Under the pieces are notes generated by a model. That model did no database searches and was not told where the DNA came from. It worked only from the letters and a program-made list of their open reading frames with translations. A program made the translations under genes and the position numbers. Shown one piece after another: positions 272 through 40,758 of a stretch of DNA of 51,851 bases. Origin of the DNA: a virus (Duplodnaviria > Heunggongvirae > Uroviricota > Caudoviricetes); the IMG/VR virus record IMGVR_UViG_2923307698_000007, positions 1 to 51,851 of that record; one strand, written 5' to 3'. Numbering within the stretch: position 1 is the stretch's first letter; each line of letters begins with the position of its first letter.

Positions 272-1585
272 TCATTCTCCTGTTCTGCCTGTATCACTGC
301 CCACTTCATCCAGCCCCTTGACATCCTGCCACGGCCCGTCACCAAACCTGACCTGCAAATGCTGAAAAAACCCCTGAACCCGTGTGGCATCTTTGGGGTC
401 AAGAAAGGTCAGTCCGGTGATGAGTGCGCCATCTGTATCCGGGAACCAGCCATTGCTGTTTGTCTCAATAATGTTTCCCGGCCCCAGACGGAACCGTATT
501 TGTGTCTCCCCCGGGTCGCCCTTCGGTCCCTGAGGTCCGGTTGCCCCCACCGGGCCAGCCGCACCTGTTTCTCCTTTCGGTCCCTGTGGGCCTGCCGGGC
601 CTGCCGCACCGGTATCTCCCTTTGGACCCTGTGGACCTGCATTTCCCGTCAGACCGGTCTCTCCCCGCTCTCCCCTGTCGCCTTTCGGCCCCTGCGGGCC
701 TGCCGGACCAGCATCACCTGCCGGCCCCCGTTCACCGGTTGCCCCTGCCGGGCCGGTGTCGCCACGCTCTCCTTTATCTCCCTTCGGCCCCTGAGGACCC
801 GCGGGCCCCTGTTCCCCCTTTGGCCCGGGAGGCCCCACCACGGTCGGGATTCGGTTTACGGCTTCTTCCGCCGCTATCCTGCTTTGTTCCGCTGACTGTG
901 CGCTTTCTGCTGACTCCCGGGCTTTTTCTGTTGCGGTCGTTGCATCCCTGGCTGCATTACCGGCTGCACTTTCTGCCGTCTTTCTTGACAATTCAGCTTC
1001 TGCTGCACTTTGTGATGACTCACTGGCTTTTTGAGCGGCCGCAGAGGCCGAGGACGAGGACGCCTCCTCTGACTGCTTTGCAGCGGCTGCACTTTCTGCC
1101 GCCTGCCGGGCTGACTCCGATGCATCCCCTGCTGAAGTGTCAGCATTTGCAGCGTTCTCTTCTGCCTGACTGGCTGATATGCCGGCATTCCTCGCGGACG
1201 TCTCTGCTTCTCCGGCATTCTTCTTCGCCTCCTCTGCGTGACGCGCTGCTTCTTCCACCATCAGTTCAAAACGGCGCAGTGCCTCCGGCCGGACGTCATC
1301 CTCCGACATGGCACCGAGAAAATCATTCAGCGTACCGGGTTGAGAATCTTCATACACGGTGATGGTCCCGGCATGTGACGGCGGGAATCCTTCCACCAAC
1401 AGAATGACGCTGTACTGACCGTACTCAACGTCCATGCTGTAACGACCGGCTTCATCCGGATTTTCAGAGGCCACCGTGTTCACCACCACCGTGCTGCTGG
1501 TCCGTCTGGCTTTCAGTTGAATGGTGCAGTTCTGTATTGGTTTTCCTGTGCCGTCTTTCAGCACACCTGAAATCTTTACTGCCAT
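272..1585 (-). CDS. stf: Side tail fiber protein, Stf-like, with collagen-like Gly-X-Y repeats
   Basis: N-terminus [16 protein letters not shown] matches recalled lambda Stf N-terminus; long GPxGxxG repeat tract; ORF track start is GTG at 1591, ATG at 1583-1585 preferred. Confidence 0.8.
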
Positions 1586-1593
1586 ATTCACCC

Positions 1594-1649: not shown

Positions 1650-2249
1650 TCAGAATTTATAGCCGACACCCACGATGAAACCGTCAGTGCGCCAGTCGCC
1701 ACTGCCGGAACCTTCATAAGCAATATCAATTGCCACGGATTCGGTCGGGTTAAACTGCACGCCAGCTCCCCACGCCAGAGACGTGTTGCTGTGGCGACCG
1801 TCATCACTTCCGGTCAGCACATCGTGCGTTTTCCCCTTGTTGTCAGTTACGCGGAGATAATCCCCGGAAAAAGTCGACACACGGCTGTAAGCCACGCCCG
1901 CCATCGCATACGCACTGAACCATTCATTCACGCGCACAGACGGCCCCGCCATTACGCTGAACCAGCGGTTACGCACGGAATCTTCATGCCAGCGGGTATC
2001 GCTGTAATGGGTCAGCTGGCGATTCCTGTCTCCTGCATAGCTGAACGACGTCACCATCCCCAGTGTGTCCGTAAACTCATAACGGTATTTCACGTTAATC
2101 CCGTTCAGTTCATCGCTGCCGGGAACGCTCGTCGAGACATGAAGATACCCCGCGCTCAGCGTGGACTGATGTTCAGACGCCCATGCAGGCGCACCGGATA
2201 CGGCCAGACAAATGGCTGCGGACAAAATGGCGGCATAAAGTTTACGCAT
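1650..2249 (-). CDS. lom: Lom outer membrane protein (Ail/Lom/OmpX family)
   Basis: 199 aa with signal peptide; C-terminus IAYEGSGSGDWRTDGFIVGVGYKF matches recalled lambda Lom. Confidence 0.9.
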   Translation of the reverse strand: MRKLYAAILSAAICLAVSGAPAWASEHQSTLSAGYLHVSTSVPGSDELNGINVKYRYEFTDTLGMVTSFSYAGDRNRQLTHYSDTRWHEDSVRNRWFSVMAGPSVRVNEWFSAYAMAGVAYSRVSTFSGDYLRVTDNKGKTHDVLTGSDDGRHSNTSLAWGAGVQFNPTESVAIDIAYEGSGSGDWRTDGFIVGVGYKF

Positions 2250-2315: not shown

Positions 2316-3713
2316 TCAGCTGATACTGATACCTGCTGTGGATTTTTTCATCACCACAACCAGCAGATCGCTGATACTGGTTGTTGGTGTCCAGTTATTC
2401 GCTCCTGATGAAGATACGGTGAATGTCAGTGTCAGCGTCCCCTGTCCGGCAGGCATATCTATAACTGAAGAAAATACGCCCTGAGCATCCGTCGTGGACT
2501 GATTAAAAATCTCCTGACCATTGTGGGTCACTCTTAACCGGCAGGTTGAATACCAGTATGACTGTTGGTTATTACTGTTGAAATTCTCATGCTTACCACC
2601 GCGGAATAACACTGGCGGTATCATGACCTGCCGGTCAAACTTCTGATCATCACTGATTCTTACCGTGATGGTGCCACTGGCATAAGTGCTCGTGCGGGGG
2701 AAAGACTTGCTGACCGTTTTGACAATATCGCCTTCAATCTGGTTGGCTGACAGTTTCCCCTTAATCTGACAGTTCTCATTAATCGTGACGTTGTTGAGCG
2801 TCCCTGAGTTCGCATTCACACTGCCACTGATATCCGCATTTTTCGCCGTCAGTCGCCCGTCCGGCGTCAGGGAAAACGTCGGGGGGTTGCCGGATGACGT
2901 GATACTCACCGCAAACAGTCGTTTCAGGAACACGTCGTTCATGAACAGCTGATTCCCCTGCGCCACAAATAACGGCGTGCTGTTGCCGCTCTCCGGATTT
3001 ATCATCGCGATACGGTCAGCCAGCAGCAGTATGTTGCTCAGTGGCTGGCCATCAGTATCCTCAATCCCTGCACCAATCCCGGCCACATAGGGAATGCCGT
3101 CTTTCGTTTTTTGAACCTTCAGCATGTACAGCGCAGCCAGGTCATCATTTGTGTCCTTCTGCACGCGCTGTATCTGCTGTATGGTGGCGCTCTGGTTCTC
3201 CAGTGTTTTGTTGACCGTCTGTGTGATTTCATTGCGGGTTTCCGTGATGCTGGTCTTCATCTCCGCCATCTCATCTGCAAGCTGGCTGTTATCTATCAGT
3301 TCCCACAACCCCTGAGCCAGATGCAGTTTTCCTATTTTTTCCCGGAAAAATTCCAGATACCCTTCACCATCATTGCTGGGCTGCCCGCTGACTTCCACAA
3401 ACGCAGATTTCCCCACCAGGTTGACGCTGCGCACGTAAAACCAGAAATCCTTCCCGGGCTTAATGTGCGGGCCGGATACACTCCACTGACTGCCGGTCCC
3501 CAGATAACGGGCAGAGGTTTCCACCTGAGATGTGTCTGCGATTTTTGCCTCCGAAAACCAGAATTCAAACTGTACCGTCGGGTCATATACAGCCAGTTTC
3601 GGGACCGCCGTTATCTGAAAATAGCCCGGTGTCAGCTCAATCTGTGACGGCGCTGCCGGTGCGGCAATCCGGAACGATACCGACGCCGGATCGCCCTGCT
3701 GCCCCCCACGCAT
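2316..3713 (-). CDS. J: Tail tip host specificity protein J, C-terminal segment (frameshifted relative to N-terminal segment)
   Basis: Translation [18 protein letters not shown]...[10 protein letters not shown] matches recalled lambda J C-terminal half. Confidence 0.8.
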
Positions 3714-5796
3714 TTACCGCCCGGACTGTCAGCCTGTAGCTCCCCGGCGCCAGTTGCGTGAAGCGGTATGTGGTTTCCGTCGTCCGGGCCGTGCTGACCA
3801 GCCGCTCACTGCCGTCATCCGCGGCCACGGTCAGGCGAAGCATAAAGCTCACGCCCTTCACCACCTTCGGCGTGTCCCATTTCGCCTGTGCCAGATACTG
3901 ACCGTCAGCTGCGCTCACCTCCACCGTCAGGTGCTGCACTGCCGGAGGGATGACGCTGTTCAGGGTGCCTGACTGCGGCTCAAAGCTGGCCCCGTTATCC
4001 ACGATGGCTTCCTTTTCCGGTACGTGCTGCACCGCCGTGATGGCAAAGGTACCGTCCGTGTTTTCCCGGATGGAAACACAGCGGAACAGGCGACGACGCA
4101 GTGACGGCAGGGAGAGTCCCCACACACCGTATGTCTCCACGCCATCCGGCAGGGTACTGACCTGTATCCGGTCCGGCGCGGGGTGTGCGGTGATGTCCAC
4201 ACTCACCGGCTTACCGCTGCCGTTAATCAGGTTCACCGTGGCGGCACCTGTCTCCGGCAGGGTCACCTCACGGTCCAGTGTCAGGGTGCGGCTGGCGGCA
4301 TCAATGGACAGGACACGTCCGCCGGTCATGGTCCCGGCATAGTCGTTATCACAGATTTCAATAATGTCACCGGGTGTGTGACGCAGCCCCTGTGACCCGA
4401 GCGTGAAATCCACCGTCTGCGTTTCCAGCAGTCCGGTCTTTATCACCCACAGCCCGGCACGGTGGGCCTGACCGCGACTGGTGCAACCGAACGCATCCAT
4501 CTTCAGCAGGTTGCGCCCGTAGCGCAGTATGGCTTCCGGGTCTTCCACCAGTTCCGTGGAGGTCTGCCAGCCGTTCTGCGGGTCGGTGTAATTCACCTCC
4601 ACCGCCGTGTGGCGGTCCTTCAGGGCGCTGAAGCTGTAGCGAAACCCCACGCCGTTATCATCCACCACCACATCGCTGTTGGTGTACGGCCACACCACAT
4701 CCGACGGGCGGTCCTGAACGAACGTCAGCGTCTGGCCGTTCCATACCGGCATACAGCGCATCGCCGAGCAGAAATCACTGAGAACGTCCCACGCCTTACG
4801 CTGTTGTGACAGGTACGCATTAAAGGTCATCCGCGGCTCTGTGCCCCCGAAACCATCCGGGACCGTCTGGTCGCAGTACTGCGCAATGGCATACAGCGCC
4901 CATTTGTCCACGTCTGCCGCCCCCAGACGTTTTCCCATGCCGTAGCGCGGGTGGGTCAGCATGTCCCACAGGCACCAGGCTGGGTTGTTGCTGTATGCCG
5001 GTTTCAGACTGCCGTCCCAGATACCACTGTACGTGCGTTTTTCCGGGTCATAGTTTGACGGTACCTGGATGATGCGACCGCGGATATGGTAGTTCACCGT
5101 CATCTGCTGACCGCCAAACTGCTCCGCATCCACCTGCAGCCCCACAATCGCCGTGTTCGGGTAGCACTGTTTCACATCGATGATTTCGGTGTATGACGAC
5201 CAGAGCGTCTTATTCTGCAGCTGGTCCGTGGTGCTGTCCGCCGTCTCCCGGACCATCCGGATGTTAAAGGGACGGGGAGGCAGATTATCCAGAATCACCG
5301 ACGCCAGGTACTGTGAGGTGGTCTTGCCGTTAATGGTGACATCCTTTTCCGTCACCCAGTTACCGTTACGCTGCAACTGAATCAGCAGTCGGACAGAAGA
5401 GGGATTACGGTCGCCCTTTGAGGTGGTCTCCAACAGTGACTGCACCCCGAAGGTGACCCGCAGGCGGTCAATGTTCGCGGACGTAATGGTGCGCGTCACC
5501 GGCTTTGCTTTCGTCACTTCCACGCCCAGTGCGGTTTCAGCTCCGGAGGACTCAAAGCCTTCAGGTGGTGTCTGCTCCTGCTCCCCGGCGCGCCAGACCG
5601 CTGTCACACCATGTATCACAGGATTACCGTCCGTGTCCGTCAGCGGGGTTTTGTTCACCAGGATACTCTGCAGCCCCTTCACCGGACCTTCAATCGGCCC
5701 TTCACCAATCGCATCAATCACGCTCATCATCTGCGTGGACTTAAGATTGTCCTTTGCCTCAACCGGCGTGTGCGCCTTGCCGCCACCTTTGCCCAT
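3637..5796 (-). CDS. J: Tail tip host specificity protein J, N-terminal segment
   Basis: [22 protein letters not shown] start at 5794-5796 with RBS; strong similarity to recalled lambda J through residue about 690; frame ends after the G6 run at 3702-3707. Confidence 0.8.
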
Positions 5797-6033: not shown

Positions 6034-6712
6034 ATGCCTGCCGCCCGATAACCACCACCTTCCCGTCACCGCCTTCATCACGGGTACTGATGTCCTGAGA
6101 GATTCGCCGGGAGCCAACCAGCATTTCCCCGTAAGGCACCGGCATCGGGTTCCCCTGGGCAATCATGTTATCCAGCGAGGAAAAGTACGTGTTCTGTCTG
6201 CCGTTATCCGTGCTTTTGTACTCCGGTACTTTAGCCTTCGGGGCCAGCATCTGAGCCACACCACCCAGTATCATGCTGGCCCCCAGTGAAAACAGCATCG
6301 TGGTGGCAGAAAAACCACCGGCTGCCAGGGCTGAACCCCATAACGCCATTGATGCCCCGGCAGTGAAGAACGACCCCACGATGGCCGCCGCCCCCAGCAC
6401 AATCTGCAGTCCGCCCTTTCCGGCTCCGGCCAGTCGCGGCACAATATGGATGACCGCCCCCTCACCCAGAGGTTCGTGAAGACGGGCGTACACCGCCTCC
6501 GGTGCCGTGTCCTCACCGCGAATACGTATCTGGTACCAGCCTTCGTTCATCTGACGGCGGAATCCCGGCACCTGTAACGACAGCGCCCGGATGGCTTCCG
6601 CTGCCGTGTTCACATACAGGCTGAGGCGGCGGCCAAATCGTTGTAAATCCCCGTGAAGGCAGATACGTGCCAGTGGCGGTGACGCCAGGCTGAATGCGTT
6701 CGTCGTTGCCAT
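6032..6712 (-). CDS. I: Tail assembly protein I
   Basis: 226 aa; MATTNAFSLASPPLARICLHGDLQRFGRR resembles recalled lambda I; Gly/Ala-rich hydrophobic C-terminal half. Confidence 0.85.
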   Translation of the reverse strand: MATTNAFSLASPPLARICLHGDLQRFGRRLSLYVNTAAEAIRALSLQVPGFRRQMNEGWYQIRIRGEDTAPEAVYARLHEPLGEGAVIHIVPRLAGAGKGGLQIVLGAAAIVGSFFTAGASMALWGSALAAGGFSATTMLFSLGASMILGGVAQMLAPKAKVPEYKSTDNGRQNTYFSSLDNMIAQGNPMPVPYGEMLVGSRRISQDISTRDEGGDGKVVVIGRQA

Positions 6713-23654: not shown

Positions 23655-23742
23655 CTGAAACAGGAATTTTTTCTCTGCATGAGACGGGGGGCGGTGTCCG
23701 GAGCGATCGTTTTTTACGCCGGATGATACCCCCCCGCTCGGG

Positions 23743-27951: not shown

Positions 27952-28206
27952 CTGATGTATGTCTCCGTCACCGCCGACAGAAAATGAAAGTAAAGAAAAA
28001 CAAAAAAGCCGCCAGTGTCACCCACTGACGGCCAACGCCGGGAGCCGTGATTATGGCATTCAGGCTCTGCTAAAAATGCCAGATAACATTCCGGCCTCCC
28101 CTGATTCAGGTTATAAATGACACAATATCTTGACAACATCCGTCACTGTCTGTCAGAAAATGTACTGCCAAATATAAGTATCATGTGAAGTACATCTACC
28201 CGTTTT

Positions 28207-39125: not shown

Positions 39126-39823
39126 ACACTTGCTCCTTTCAGTCCGAACTTAGCTTTAATTTCTGCGATCTTCGCCAGAGCCTGTGCTCGATTTAGAGGT
39201 CTGCCGCCCATGACAGGAAGTTGTTTTACTGGTTCAGGTATCGTCTCACCACGGTTAATTCGTGCTGTCATACAGGTCAGTTCATCGGCAGCCTTGCGCC
39301 GTAATTCCGCGTCAGTCAGCGCATTGGCCCGCATGTTCTGGTACAGGTTGGTAACCAGCCAGTAGTGCGCGTTTGATTTCCACGGATAAGACTCTGCATC
39401 CGGATACAGGCCACGCTTCCGGCAATACTCGTAAACCATATCAACCAGCTCGCTGACGTTTGGCAGTCCGACGATAACGGATGCTTCTTCCCGGCACCAT
39501 GCAACAAACTGCCCGGGTGATGGAAGAAATGGTCGATTCTGCCGACGGGCTACGCGCATTCCTGCGTTAACCTGTTCCATCGAGGTGATCCCGTTTTCCC
39601 GGAAAGCCAGAACCCACTGGCGGCGGATTTCATTCAGTTCGTTCTGGTCCCGGTTAGCCAGACTCGCCGGGAAAGTTGCCAGTAACTGGCTGAACACACC
39701 GTTGATGATCTGCGCTACCTGTTGTACCTGCGGCTTTTCGTCGTACTGTTCCGGCATGTTGTTGGCGATCCGACGCATCTGCTCACGGTCAAAGTTAACC
39801 ATCTGTGCGGCGATGTTTTTCAT
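39122..39823 (-). CDS. P: Replication protein P (DnaB helicase loader)
   Basis: 233 aa, near identical to recalled lambda P (MKNIAAQMVNFDREQMRRIANNMPEQYDEKPQ...). Confidence 0.95.
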   Translation of the reverse strand: MKNIAAQMVNFDREQMRRIANNMPEQYDEKPQVQQVAQIINGVFSQLLATFPASLANRDQNELNEIRRQWVLAFRENGITSMEQVNAGMRVARRQNRPFLPSPGQFVAWCREEASVIVGLPNVSELVDMVYEYCRKRGLYPDAESYPWKSNAHYWLVTNLYQNMRANALTDAELRRKAADELTCMTARINRGETIPEPVKQLPVMGGRPLNRAQALAKIAEIKAKFGLKGASV

Positions 39824-40758
39824 AAATCCACCCCGTAAATCCAGTCAGTGTTTGTCAGGTCGAGTTTTGGTTTTCCAGCTGTCACGCCAGCCTGTTGCTT
39901 GTTACGGTTGATTTCGAGTTGGGTCCACTTGTCGCGGAGTTTGGCCGGACTTAGCACGTTACCGGACCAGAAGTTGTCCTGGCATGCCCAGCGGAACAGC
40001 ACGCACATGTCGCGGTGGTTACGTCCGTCACGTTCACGCATCAGGCGGATATCGTTAGCCCACCCTGCAAAATTCGGTTTTCTGGCTGATGGTGCGATGG
40101 TCTTCACCATGTCAAACATCCACTCTGCGGCGGTCAGGTCTTCTGCTGTTCCCCACTTGCTGCCGCTCTGAATTGCAGCATCCGGTTTAACCACAGAAAG
40201 ATCGTTTTCTGGCTGGTCAGAGGATTCGCCAGAATTCTCTGACGAATAATCTTTTCTTTTTTCTTTTGTAATAGTGTCTTTTGTGTCCCCCTGTTTTGAG
40301 GGATAGCAATCCCCTAATTTGAGGGATGTTTTATCCCTCGTTTTAGGGGATTTTCCCTCGTTTTGAGGGATGTCCCTCATTTTAGGGGAACCTCCCTCGT
40401 TTTGAGGGATGCACCATTCTGAGATGTTTTTATTTGGTCCAAACATGCCGCCTTGCTGCTTGATAATATTCATTCTGACGAGTTCTAACTTGGCTTCATT
40501 GCACCGTTTGACAGGTAACTTTGTAATCTCGCTAAGTTGAGAATCGGTGATTCTGTCCATTGGTTTATTCCACCCATAGGTTTTACGCAGAATGGCAAGC
40601 AGCACTTTAAACTGTCGCTTGGTCAGATCTGCGCCTGAATAAGCCTCAATCAGCATATTTGATAGTCTGGCGTAACCATCATCGAGATCTGCCACATTAC
40701 GCTCCTGTTCGGCAAAGTTACCTCTGCCGAAGTTGAGTATTTTTGCTGTATTTGTCAT
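39820..40758 (-). CDS. O: Replication initiator O
   Basis: 312 aa, near identical to recalled lambda O, with extra in-frame repeat in the iteron-encoded linker. Confidence 0.95.
   Translation of the reverse strand: MTNTAKILNFGRGNFAEQERNVADLDDGYARLSNMLIEAYSGADLTKRQFKVLLAILRKTYGWNKPMDRITDSQLSEITKLPVKRCNEAKLELVRMNIIKQQGGMFGPNKNISEWCIPQNEGGSPKMRDIPQNEGKSPKTRDKTSLKLGDCYPSKQGDTKDTITKEKRKDYSSENSGESSDQPENDLSVVKPDAAIQSGSKWGTAEDLTAAEWMFDMVKTIAPSARKPNFAGWANDIRLMRERDGRNHRDMCVLFRWACQDNFWSGNVLSPAKLRDKWTQLEINRNKQQAGVTAGKPKLDLTNTDWIYGVDL
40240..40409. repeat. ori: Origin of replication: six iteron-like repeats plus adjacent AT-rich tract inside O
   Basis: Repeats of tccctc-N6-gaggga type at 40286-40409; AT-rich 40240-40285. 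Confidence 0.8.

Follow-up and report, generated by a model that had tools for sequence, protein, structure and literature searches.

The 51,851-nt stretch analysed here (the window) holds a lambdoid prophage whose gene order matches that of annotated relatives gene for gene. The gene set comprises tail fibre, lom, J, I, K, L, M, tape measure, G/T chaperones, major tail, head, terminase and lysis genes, together with a nanS-p-like esterase, Q, the nin region, O/P, the immunity region, red/gam, xis and int. About 60 annotated genes of two relatives were translated and compared with the window, and these gave full-length matches in one frame, with J as the sole exception. In the window, the J sequence is written in two reading frames, which meet at a run of six G on the coding strand, and the genes on both sides of J, lom and I, are intact (Table 1). 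Near the other end of the window, the gene for a tyrosine integrase precedes the 5' portion of host torS, which covers 412 of the 914 profile positions. Integration is therefore beside torS; the right end of the prophage is at ~50.5 kb, and its left end lies beyond the window.

Table 1 Coordinates of J, its parts, its neighbours and other features of the window.
Feature	Coordinates	Strand	Remarks
Side tail fibre N-terminal protein, ORF	1591..272	-	collagen-like Gly-X-Y repeats
45-bp tandem repeat in side tail fibre ORF	550-640
lom-like outer-membrane protein gene	1650..2249	-	directly downstream of J; intact; 98.5% to a relative's Ail/Lom, full length
Gene J (tail tip attachment / host specificity protein)	2316..5796	-	3481 nt as written, one base too many for read-through
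Downstream ORF, 465 aa, +1 frame	2316..3713	-	ATG 3713-3711, four non-J residues MRGG, then J residues 699-1159 from 3701
Upstream ORF, 719 aa	3637..5796	-	J residues 1-698 (hub domains, most of FNIII-1) + 21 out-of-frame residues
Homopolymer G6 (C6 on + strand)	3702..3707	-	GG of Trp697 (3707-3706), Gly698 GGG (3705-3703), surplus G (3702)
Tail assembly protein I gene	6038..6613	-	directly upstream of J; intact; 99% over residues 1-192 of 193
T-like ORF	13620..13342		next after the chaperone gene
Tail assembly chaperone gene	14018..13647	-	heptamer A_AAA_AAG at ~13655-13647, just before the stop
ORF, 461 aa	17659..16274	-	directly after the portal ORF; no Pfam match
162-bp tandem repeat in 461-aa ORF	16743-17443		4.3 copies, 96% match
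Portal ORF	19020..17656
tRNA gene	31254-31329	-	downstream of Q
Hexanucleotide array AGAAAC/AGAAAT	34128-34192		~10.8 copies, intergenic
ORF, 590 aa	34509-36278		function unknown
Replication gene O	39820-40758
~20-bp repeats inside O	40334-40411
Tyrosine integrase gene	49430-50503
Host torS, 5' part	50598-51851

Several other features of the prophage were recorded. The side tail fibre gene has NCBIfam matches to Scl/Lcl collagen-like adhesins and differs in length from its 95NR1 counterpart by 9 bp (3 codons) at 587. The portal gene, labelled 'frameshifted' in the 95NR1 annotation, was considered as a second lesion and rejected, as the window has two clean overlapping ORFs like most relatives. 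PGAP joins the 95NR1 counterpart of the 461-aa ORF to the portal gene as 'frameshifted', and gene callers give a shorter ORF, or no ORF, in some of the relatives shown; in the window the 162-bp repeat runs in frame through this ORF (54 aa per unit). The antirepressor gene is intact in the window and frameshifted in the relative 95NR1. Between Q and the nanS-p-like esterase no stx gene was found, and genes for a TerB-family protein and a DUF3927 protein lie there. The single tRNA gene was called tRNA-Met (CAT) by ARAGORN, and its counterpart in 14EC001 is annotated as tRNA-Ile; judged from these calls, it is probably a lysidine-type Ile tRNA. The copy number of the hexanucleotide array, which lies upstream of the 590-aa ORF, departs from that of relatives by 6, 12 or 18 bp, and the repeats inside O resemble lambda-type origin iterons.

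Reading frames and domains of J

The + strand at the site reads ...CTGCTG CCCCCC ACGC..., corresponding to GCG TGG GGG GCA GCA on the coding (-) strand. The sequence-only reading had placed a frameshift in J at exactly this C6 run, with the two parts of the gene in different frames, an ORF overlap at 3637-3713 and one G more than a lambda-like sequence would need, and all of this was borne out. The intact gpJ of 95NR1 (1159 aa) matches the window in two collinear pieces, residues 1-701 (frame -3, 99.0%) and residues 698-1159 (frame -1, 99.6%). Hence, the two ORFs are collinear J sequence in different frames and not a chance pair. The upstream ORF begins at the J start codon at 5796 (open frame 5838/5796..3637), and its out-of-frame codons at 3702-3640 are followed by a premature TGA at 3639-3637, so that no single continuous frame spans the whole of J. 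Alignment with intact J genes, which had been proposed as a check, gave a single gap at 3702-3707, where close relatives and lambda-type J have G5. A second, compensating indel near the run was ruled out, since the alignments show one gap only.

When one C was deleted in silico, the gene became 3480 nt long and encoded a full-length J of 1159 aa with zero internal stops, where a continuous protein of about 1130 aa had been anticipated from the sequence. The repaired protein aligned end to end with lambda J (PDB 8iyk) at E = 0, and a 22-residue stretch across the junction was identical. As written, the locus thus reads as a J gene by descent and a pseudogene in its present form.

In Pfam searches, the 719-aa ORF matched FNIII-A_GpJ (PF24801, 6.7e-42), Phage-tail_3 (PF13550, 8.3e-39) and Ig_J, the last of which ended early, at profile position 93 of 104. 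The 465-aa ORF matched Ig_J_second, Phage_Tail_Tip and the receptor-binding Ig_GpJ_C, and J residues 1-835 aligned with residues 1-836 of 8iyk_J. The locus thus contains the N-terminal hub, the two FNIII/Ig-like domains, the central fibre and the C-terminal receptor-binding Ig domain of a lambda-type J, at the position of J in the tail cluster. In lambda J, the domain order is hub domains, FNIII-1, FNIII-2, alpha-helical shaft, central straight fibre and receptor-binding domain (PMC11101478). This order, combined with the break in the Ig_J profile, places the shift in the last strand of FNIII-1. Taken at face value, the predicted 719-aa product would keep the hub domains and lose everything from FNIII-2 to the C-terminus, including shaft, central fibre and receptor-binding domain.

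The window J shares with lambda gpJ (PDB 8iyk/8iyl/8k35/8xcg/8xci) the domain order, the gene context (I upstream, lom downstream) and an identical sequence at the shift site. However, lambda gpJ has 1132 aa in one frame, whereas the window J has 1159 aa when repaired and two frames as written. The C-terminal third of the window J (2316-3200) is much nearer to PDB chain 9wca, 'A8 gpJ 713' (E 4e-205), than to the lambda C-terminus (8xcj, E 3e-139). As its receptor-binding part is closer to 9wca than to lambda, the receptor need not be LamB, and the specificity of the window J may differ from that of lambda.

Run length in identical, related and divergent J genes

When ~15 billion proteins were searched for exact matches, the repaired 1159-aa J was present in several E. 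coli assemblies (UniRef n = 12). The 719-aa (AUX03274.1) and 465-aa (AUX03273.1) products occurred once each in the same collection, under adjacent accessions on one 5,052,887-bp contig, evidently the chromosome from which the window comes; the split proteins were not found in the gene-position index. Six independent draft E. coli assemblies encode an intact J, and five of these have 0 other differences over the 3,480 nt. In the loci L131, L132, L134, L135 and L136, J differs from that of the window by nothing but one gap at 3702-3707, and L132 is identical to the window over 7,711 nt apart from the extra G. All seven closely related loci that cover the run have G5. The change is thus a single step of one base in run length with no other rearrangement, as in a pseudogene made by a homopolymer indel. 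The closest allele in a complete genome is that of OkiPb01683, in which gpJ is intact and the J DNA 99.6% identical. From the shift to the end of the gene, each of the 461 codons is the same as in OkiPb01683 gpJ, indicating that no decay has followed the shift.

The possibility that the assembly carries many homopolymer errors was examined and rejected, as no other gene is shifted and no other indel was found in tiles with at least 99.9% identity to the window (~29 kb in total; L132, L137, L140 and L153). Closer relatives of the right half were sought via the repressor protein; this allele is extremely widespread, and the loci retrieved were at most 98.5% identical, which made them useless for counting private indels. 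Two intergenic homopolymers differ in length from relatives, A6 against A5 at 28002-28007 (4/4 relatives) and C7 against C8 at 23728-23735 (3/3 relatives; 95NR1 also has C7). These lengths may be natural variation or may hint at the accuracy of the consensus, and are uninformative on the J question.

Run length at the J site was then counted in 5,426 complete E. coli genomes with queries of 44-46 nt, in which every 28-nt megablast seed spans the whole run, in any flanking context. These queries replaced an 81-mer search, in which 'G5, no mismatch' was indistinguishable from 'G6, one mismatch'. G5 was found at 4,687 places in 3,097 genomes, G6 at 3 places in 3 genomes and G4 at 6 places in 6 genomes. 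Runs of other length than five thus account for 9 of 4,696 copies (0.2%) and depart in both directions. Judged from these counts, the J site varies as any short homopolymer would, and neither as a contingency locus nor as a recoding site under conservation. J contains twelve further runs of at least five bases. The exact G6 81-mer of the window was absent from the 5,426 complete E. coli genomes. With a 601-nt query, the best 40 matches listed each span 600 nt, corresponding to a single gap. An exact 24-mer with G6 had no match in IMG/VR, in one-genome-per-species contigs or in metagenome contigs. IMG/VR yielded no G6 against at least 120 G5, and phage records yielded no G6. A degenerate G6 pattern hit three contigs of 66-70% G+C (one a Streptomyces genome); these have no similarity to the window and were set aside as chance matches.

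The three complete genomes with G6 are RM11911, PSS-15 and SCU-484, and in each of them gpJ is annotated by PGAP as a frameshifted pseudogene (F7D04_RS03745, AABJ97_RS06425 and HHJ53_RS25845, respectively), with the same G5-to-G6 change at the same codon as in the window. Their J alleles have 74-79% DNA identity to the window J, which makes them independent events. G6 is the sole shift in J in RM11911 and PSS-15. In RM11911, in contrast to the window, a tail gene beside J has a lesion as well, an internal stop; as a substitution-type lesion, this points to real decay at that locus. In SCU-484, unlike in the window, J is shifted many times, and the genes beside it are frameshifted too. Hence, the G5-to-G6 slip is independent in at least two divergent J alleles and is also present in a third, error-rich locus, having either arisen or been mis-called in each.

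Escherichia phage vB_EcoS_phi330 (PV189401.1, 3001-6416) was considered as a case of the same split and rejected, because its J is in two pieces but the break lies near codon 117. This J is 98.2% identical to that of the window and is annotated as two overlapping CDSs, and the side-fibre region of the phage is in three pieces; phi330 is either a defective phage or a record with indel errors.

Origin of the sixth G

We read the split as a non-programmed one-base expansion from G5 to G6 in codons Trp697-Gly698 of J, which would be a very recent event in the lineage of this single strain, and we give this reading a probability of about one half. Strand slippage during replication would be the kind of event behind such an expansion. 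The serious competitor, at odds just short of even, is a sequencing or consensus artefact, in which case the run in the strain would truly be G5 and its J an intact 1159-aa protein, with a homopolymer over-call in one assembly accounting for the sixth G. Between real mutation and consensus error the balance is near even, and sequence by itself does not separate the two.

On the side of a real mutation, the gap is the sole indel across J and its flanks. The assembly does not appear indel-prone, because the ~29 kb of near-identical tiles contain no other indel and the ~60 other genes are intact; a low indel error rate of this kind argues against an over-call. In short G/C runs, moreover, long-read consensus errors are more commonly under-calls than over-calls, and in two other complete genomes the same change is the sole lesion in J. 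Mis-mapped short reads from other J copies, if there are any, would be expected to pull the consensus towards G5 rather than G6, since all other copies found have G5. Against a real mutation, G6 stands in a single closed chromosome, whereas the identical allele has G5 in each of its draft assemblies, including the five with 0 other differences. A residual long-read consensus error would yield the same one-record pattern, with the split proteins in exactly one record and G6 in the flanking context of the window absent from the 5,426 complete genomes, IMG/VR and the phage records. Neither a second lesion nor downstream decay marks the gene as dead independently; the 461 downstream codons are untouched, as they would be in an artefact. 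On a rough estimate that was not computed, the zero substitutions in 7.7 kb relative to L132 leave little time for a real indel, which mildly favours error. The G6 of SCU-484 lies inside a frameshift-rich locus, so errors land at this run too, and the intergenic A6 at 28002-28007, which is possibly private to the window as well, would fit with an artefact.

Two further readings would give the split arrangement a function. In one of them, a useful full-length J would be made by recoding, through a +1 ribosomal slip on GGG-G or through transcriptional slippage, or the run would act as a phase-variable switch of infectivity. If tRNA-Gly slipped by +1 from GGG onto the GGG that overlaps it, exactly ...AWGQQGD... 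would be restored, and run-length variants recur independently at this site (three G6, six G4). Recoding or switching is nevertheless very unlikely. The two-frame arrangement is not conserved, given the 9 off-length runs among 4,696 copies, the PGAP pseudogene label of all three G6 copies and the lack of G6 in phage records. Nor does the site, UGG GGG GCA, present a shift-prone motif with a stimulator at the codon, Shine-Dalgarno or heptamer level: the next codon, GCA, is neither slow nor a stop, no properly spaced Shine-Dalgarno-like stimulator is present, and there is no X_XXY_YYZ heptamer. Six G are also short for RNA polymerase slippage or for a contingency locus, and off-length runs amount to 0.2% overall and to 0/7 among closely related loci, unlike a phase-variable locus. 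The same prophage offers a direct comparison in its tail assembly chaperone gene, where the canonical -1 heptamer A_AAA_AAG is the expected signal for the programmed -1 frameshift of the lambda G/GT type. The J site resembles the G/GT type in being a frameshift in the tail cluster. However, the slippery heptamer of G/GT is conserved and present in all relatives, whereas both features are missing at the J site, where a shift of +1 would be needed.

The other functional reading, which we regard as hardly credible, is a two-piece J, in which a 719-aa hub and a 465-aa fibre/receptor-binding protein would be made apart and joined non-covalently. Some phages do have hub and fibre as distinct proteins, an ATG of its own opens the downstream ORF at 3713, and this ORF is a close counterpart of 'gpJ713', the soluble receptor-binding lambda fragment of structural work (PMC11101478; PDB chains). 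However, this ATG is also present in the +1 frame of every G5 allele, which makes it incidental, and the sole Shine-Dalgarno-like bases (GGGCGG) end 3 nt before it. With this poor spacing and a distance of 74 nt from the ATG to the downstream stop of the first ORF, translational coupling is unlikely. Moreover, the break falls inside FNIII-1 (Pfam position 93 of 104) and not at a domain boundary, and the arrangement is kept by no relative. Together, the recoding or switch reading and the two-piece reading carry a very small share of the probability. Thus, the two alternatives named in the sequence-only reading, an inactivated J or a sequencing error, both hold, and no other credible reading is left.

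A broader version of the switch would make the conserved G5 run (Trp-Gly, TGG GGG) a recurrent, reversible slippage site that toggles lambdoid prophages between infectious and non-infectious states. The off state would be kept recoverable by +1 slippage on GGG-G at a low level or by G6-to-G5 reversion, and could free the 465-aa soluble receptor-binding fibre. We consider such a toggle highly improbable. The G6 and G4 alleles, found independently of one another in divergent J genes, are compatible with it, and equally with ordinary mutation or sequencing error at any homopolymer.

Consequences for the prophage

The split of J is an ordinary one-base homopolymer frameshift that involves no new mechanism, and identical lesions have already been labelled as frameshifted gpJ by annotation pipelines. 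A familiar parallel is stf (side tail fibre) of lambda PaPa, which is inactivated by a one-base frameshift that leaves two ORFs; the likeness lies in a tail-fibre gene inactivated by a mutation. Plaques can form without stf, whereas adsorption requires J, as does tail assembly in lambda. The structural work on lambda mentions the stf mutation of laboratory lambda and does not give its nature (PMC11101478). A literature search on J frameshifts found nothing specific.

Should the sixth G be an artefact, the case would be a reminder that lone homopolymer frameshifts in closed assemblies need read support before they are given a biological reading.

If, as we infer for the main reading, the sixth G is present in the DNA of the cell and not just in the consensus, translation would go out of frame beyond Gly698, within the final strand of FNIII-1, and stop 21 codons on. 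Any tails made would then lack the part for receptor binding and for triggering DNA ejection. The prophage would be non-infectious unless it obtained J from another lambdoid prophage, was repaired by recombination or slipped back from G6 to G5. The sequence itself shows the indel, its restriction to one record, the loss of domains, the lack of downstream decay and the intact genes around J, whereas these effects on tails and infectivity, like the presence of the sixth G in the cell, are deduced. In the study of O157 Sakai, a 'defective prophage pool' is described, consisting of lambdoid prophages with small lesions in morphogenesis or host-specificity functions, and such defective EHEC prophages can still be induced, packaged, complemented or recombined via co-resident prophages (PMC2669165). 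The prophage in the window differs in having a single, putative lesion in an otherwise complete prophage.

With a real sixth G, an otherwise complete, torS-adjacent lambdoid prophage would thus make no infectious particles alone, which bears on predicting the spread of prophage cargo. It would illustrate cleanly how prophage decay begins, with one lesion and no follow-on damage. The inactivation would be very young, and rescue by co-resident lambdoid prophages may be possible, as described for EHEC (PMC2669165).
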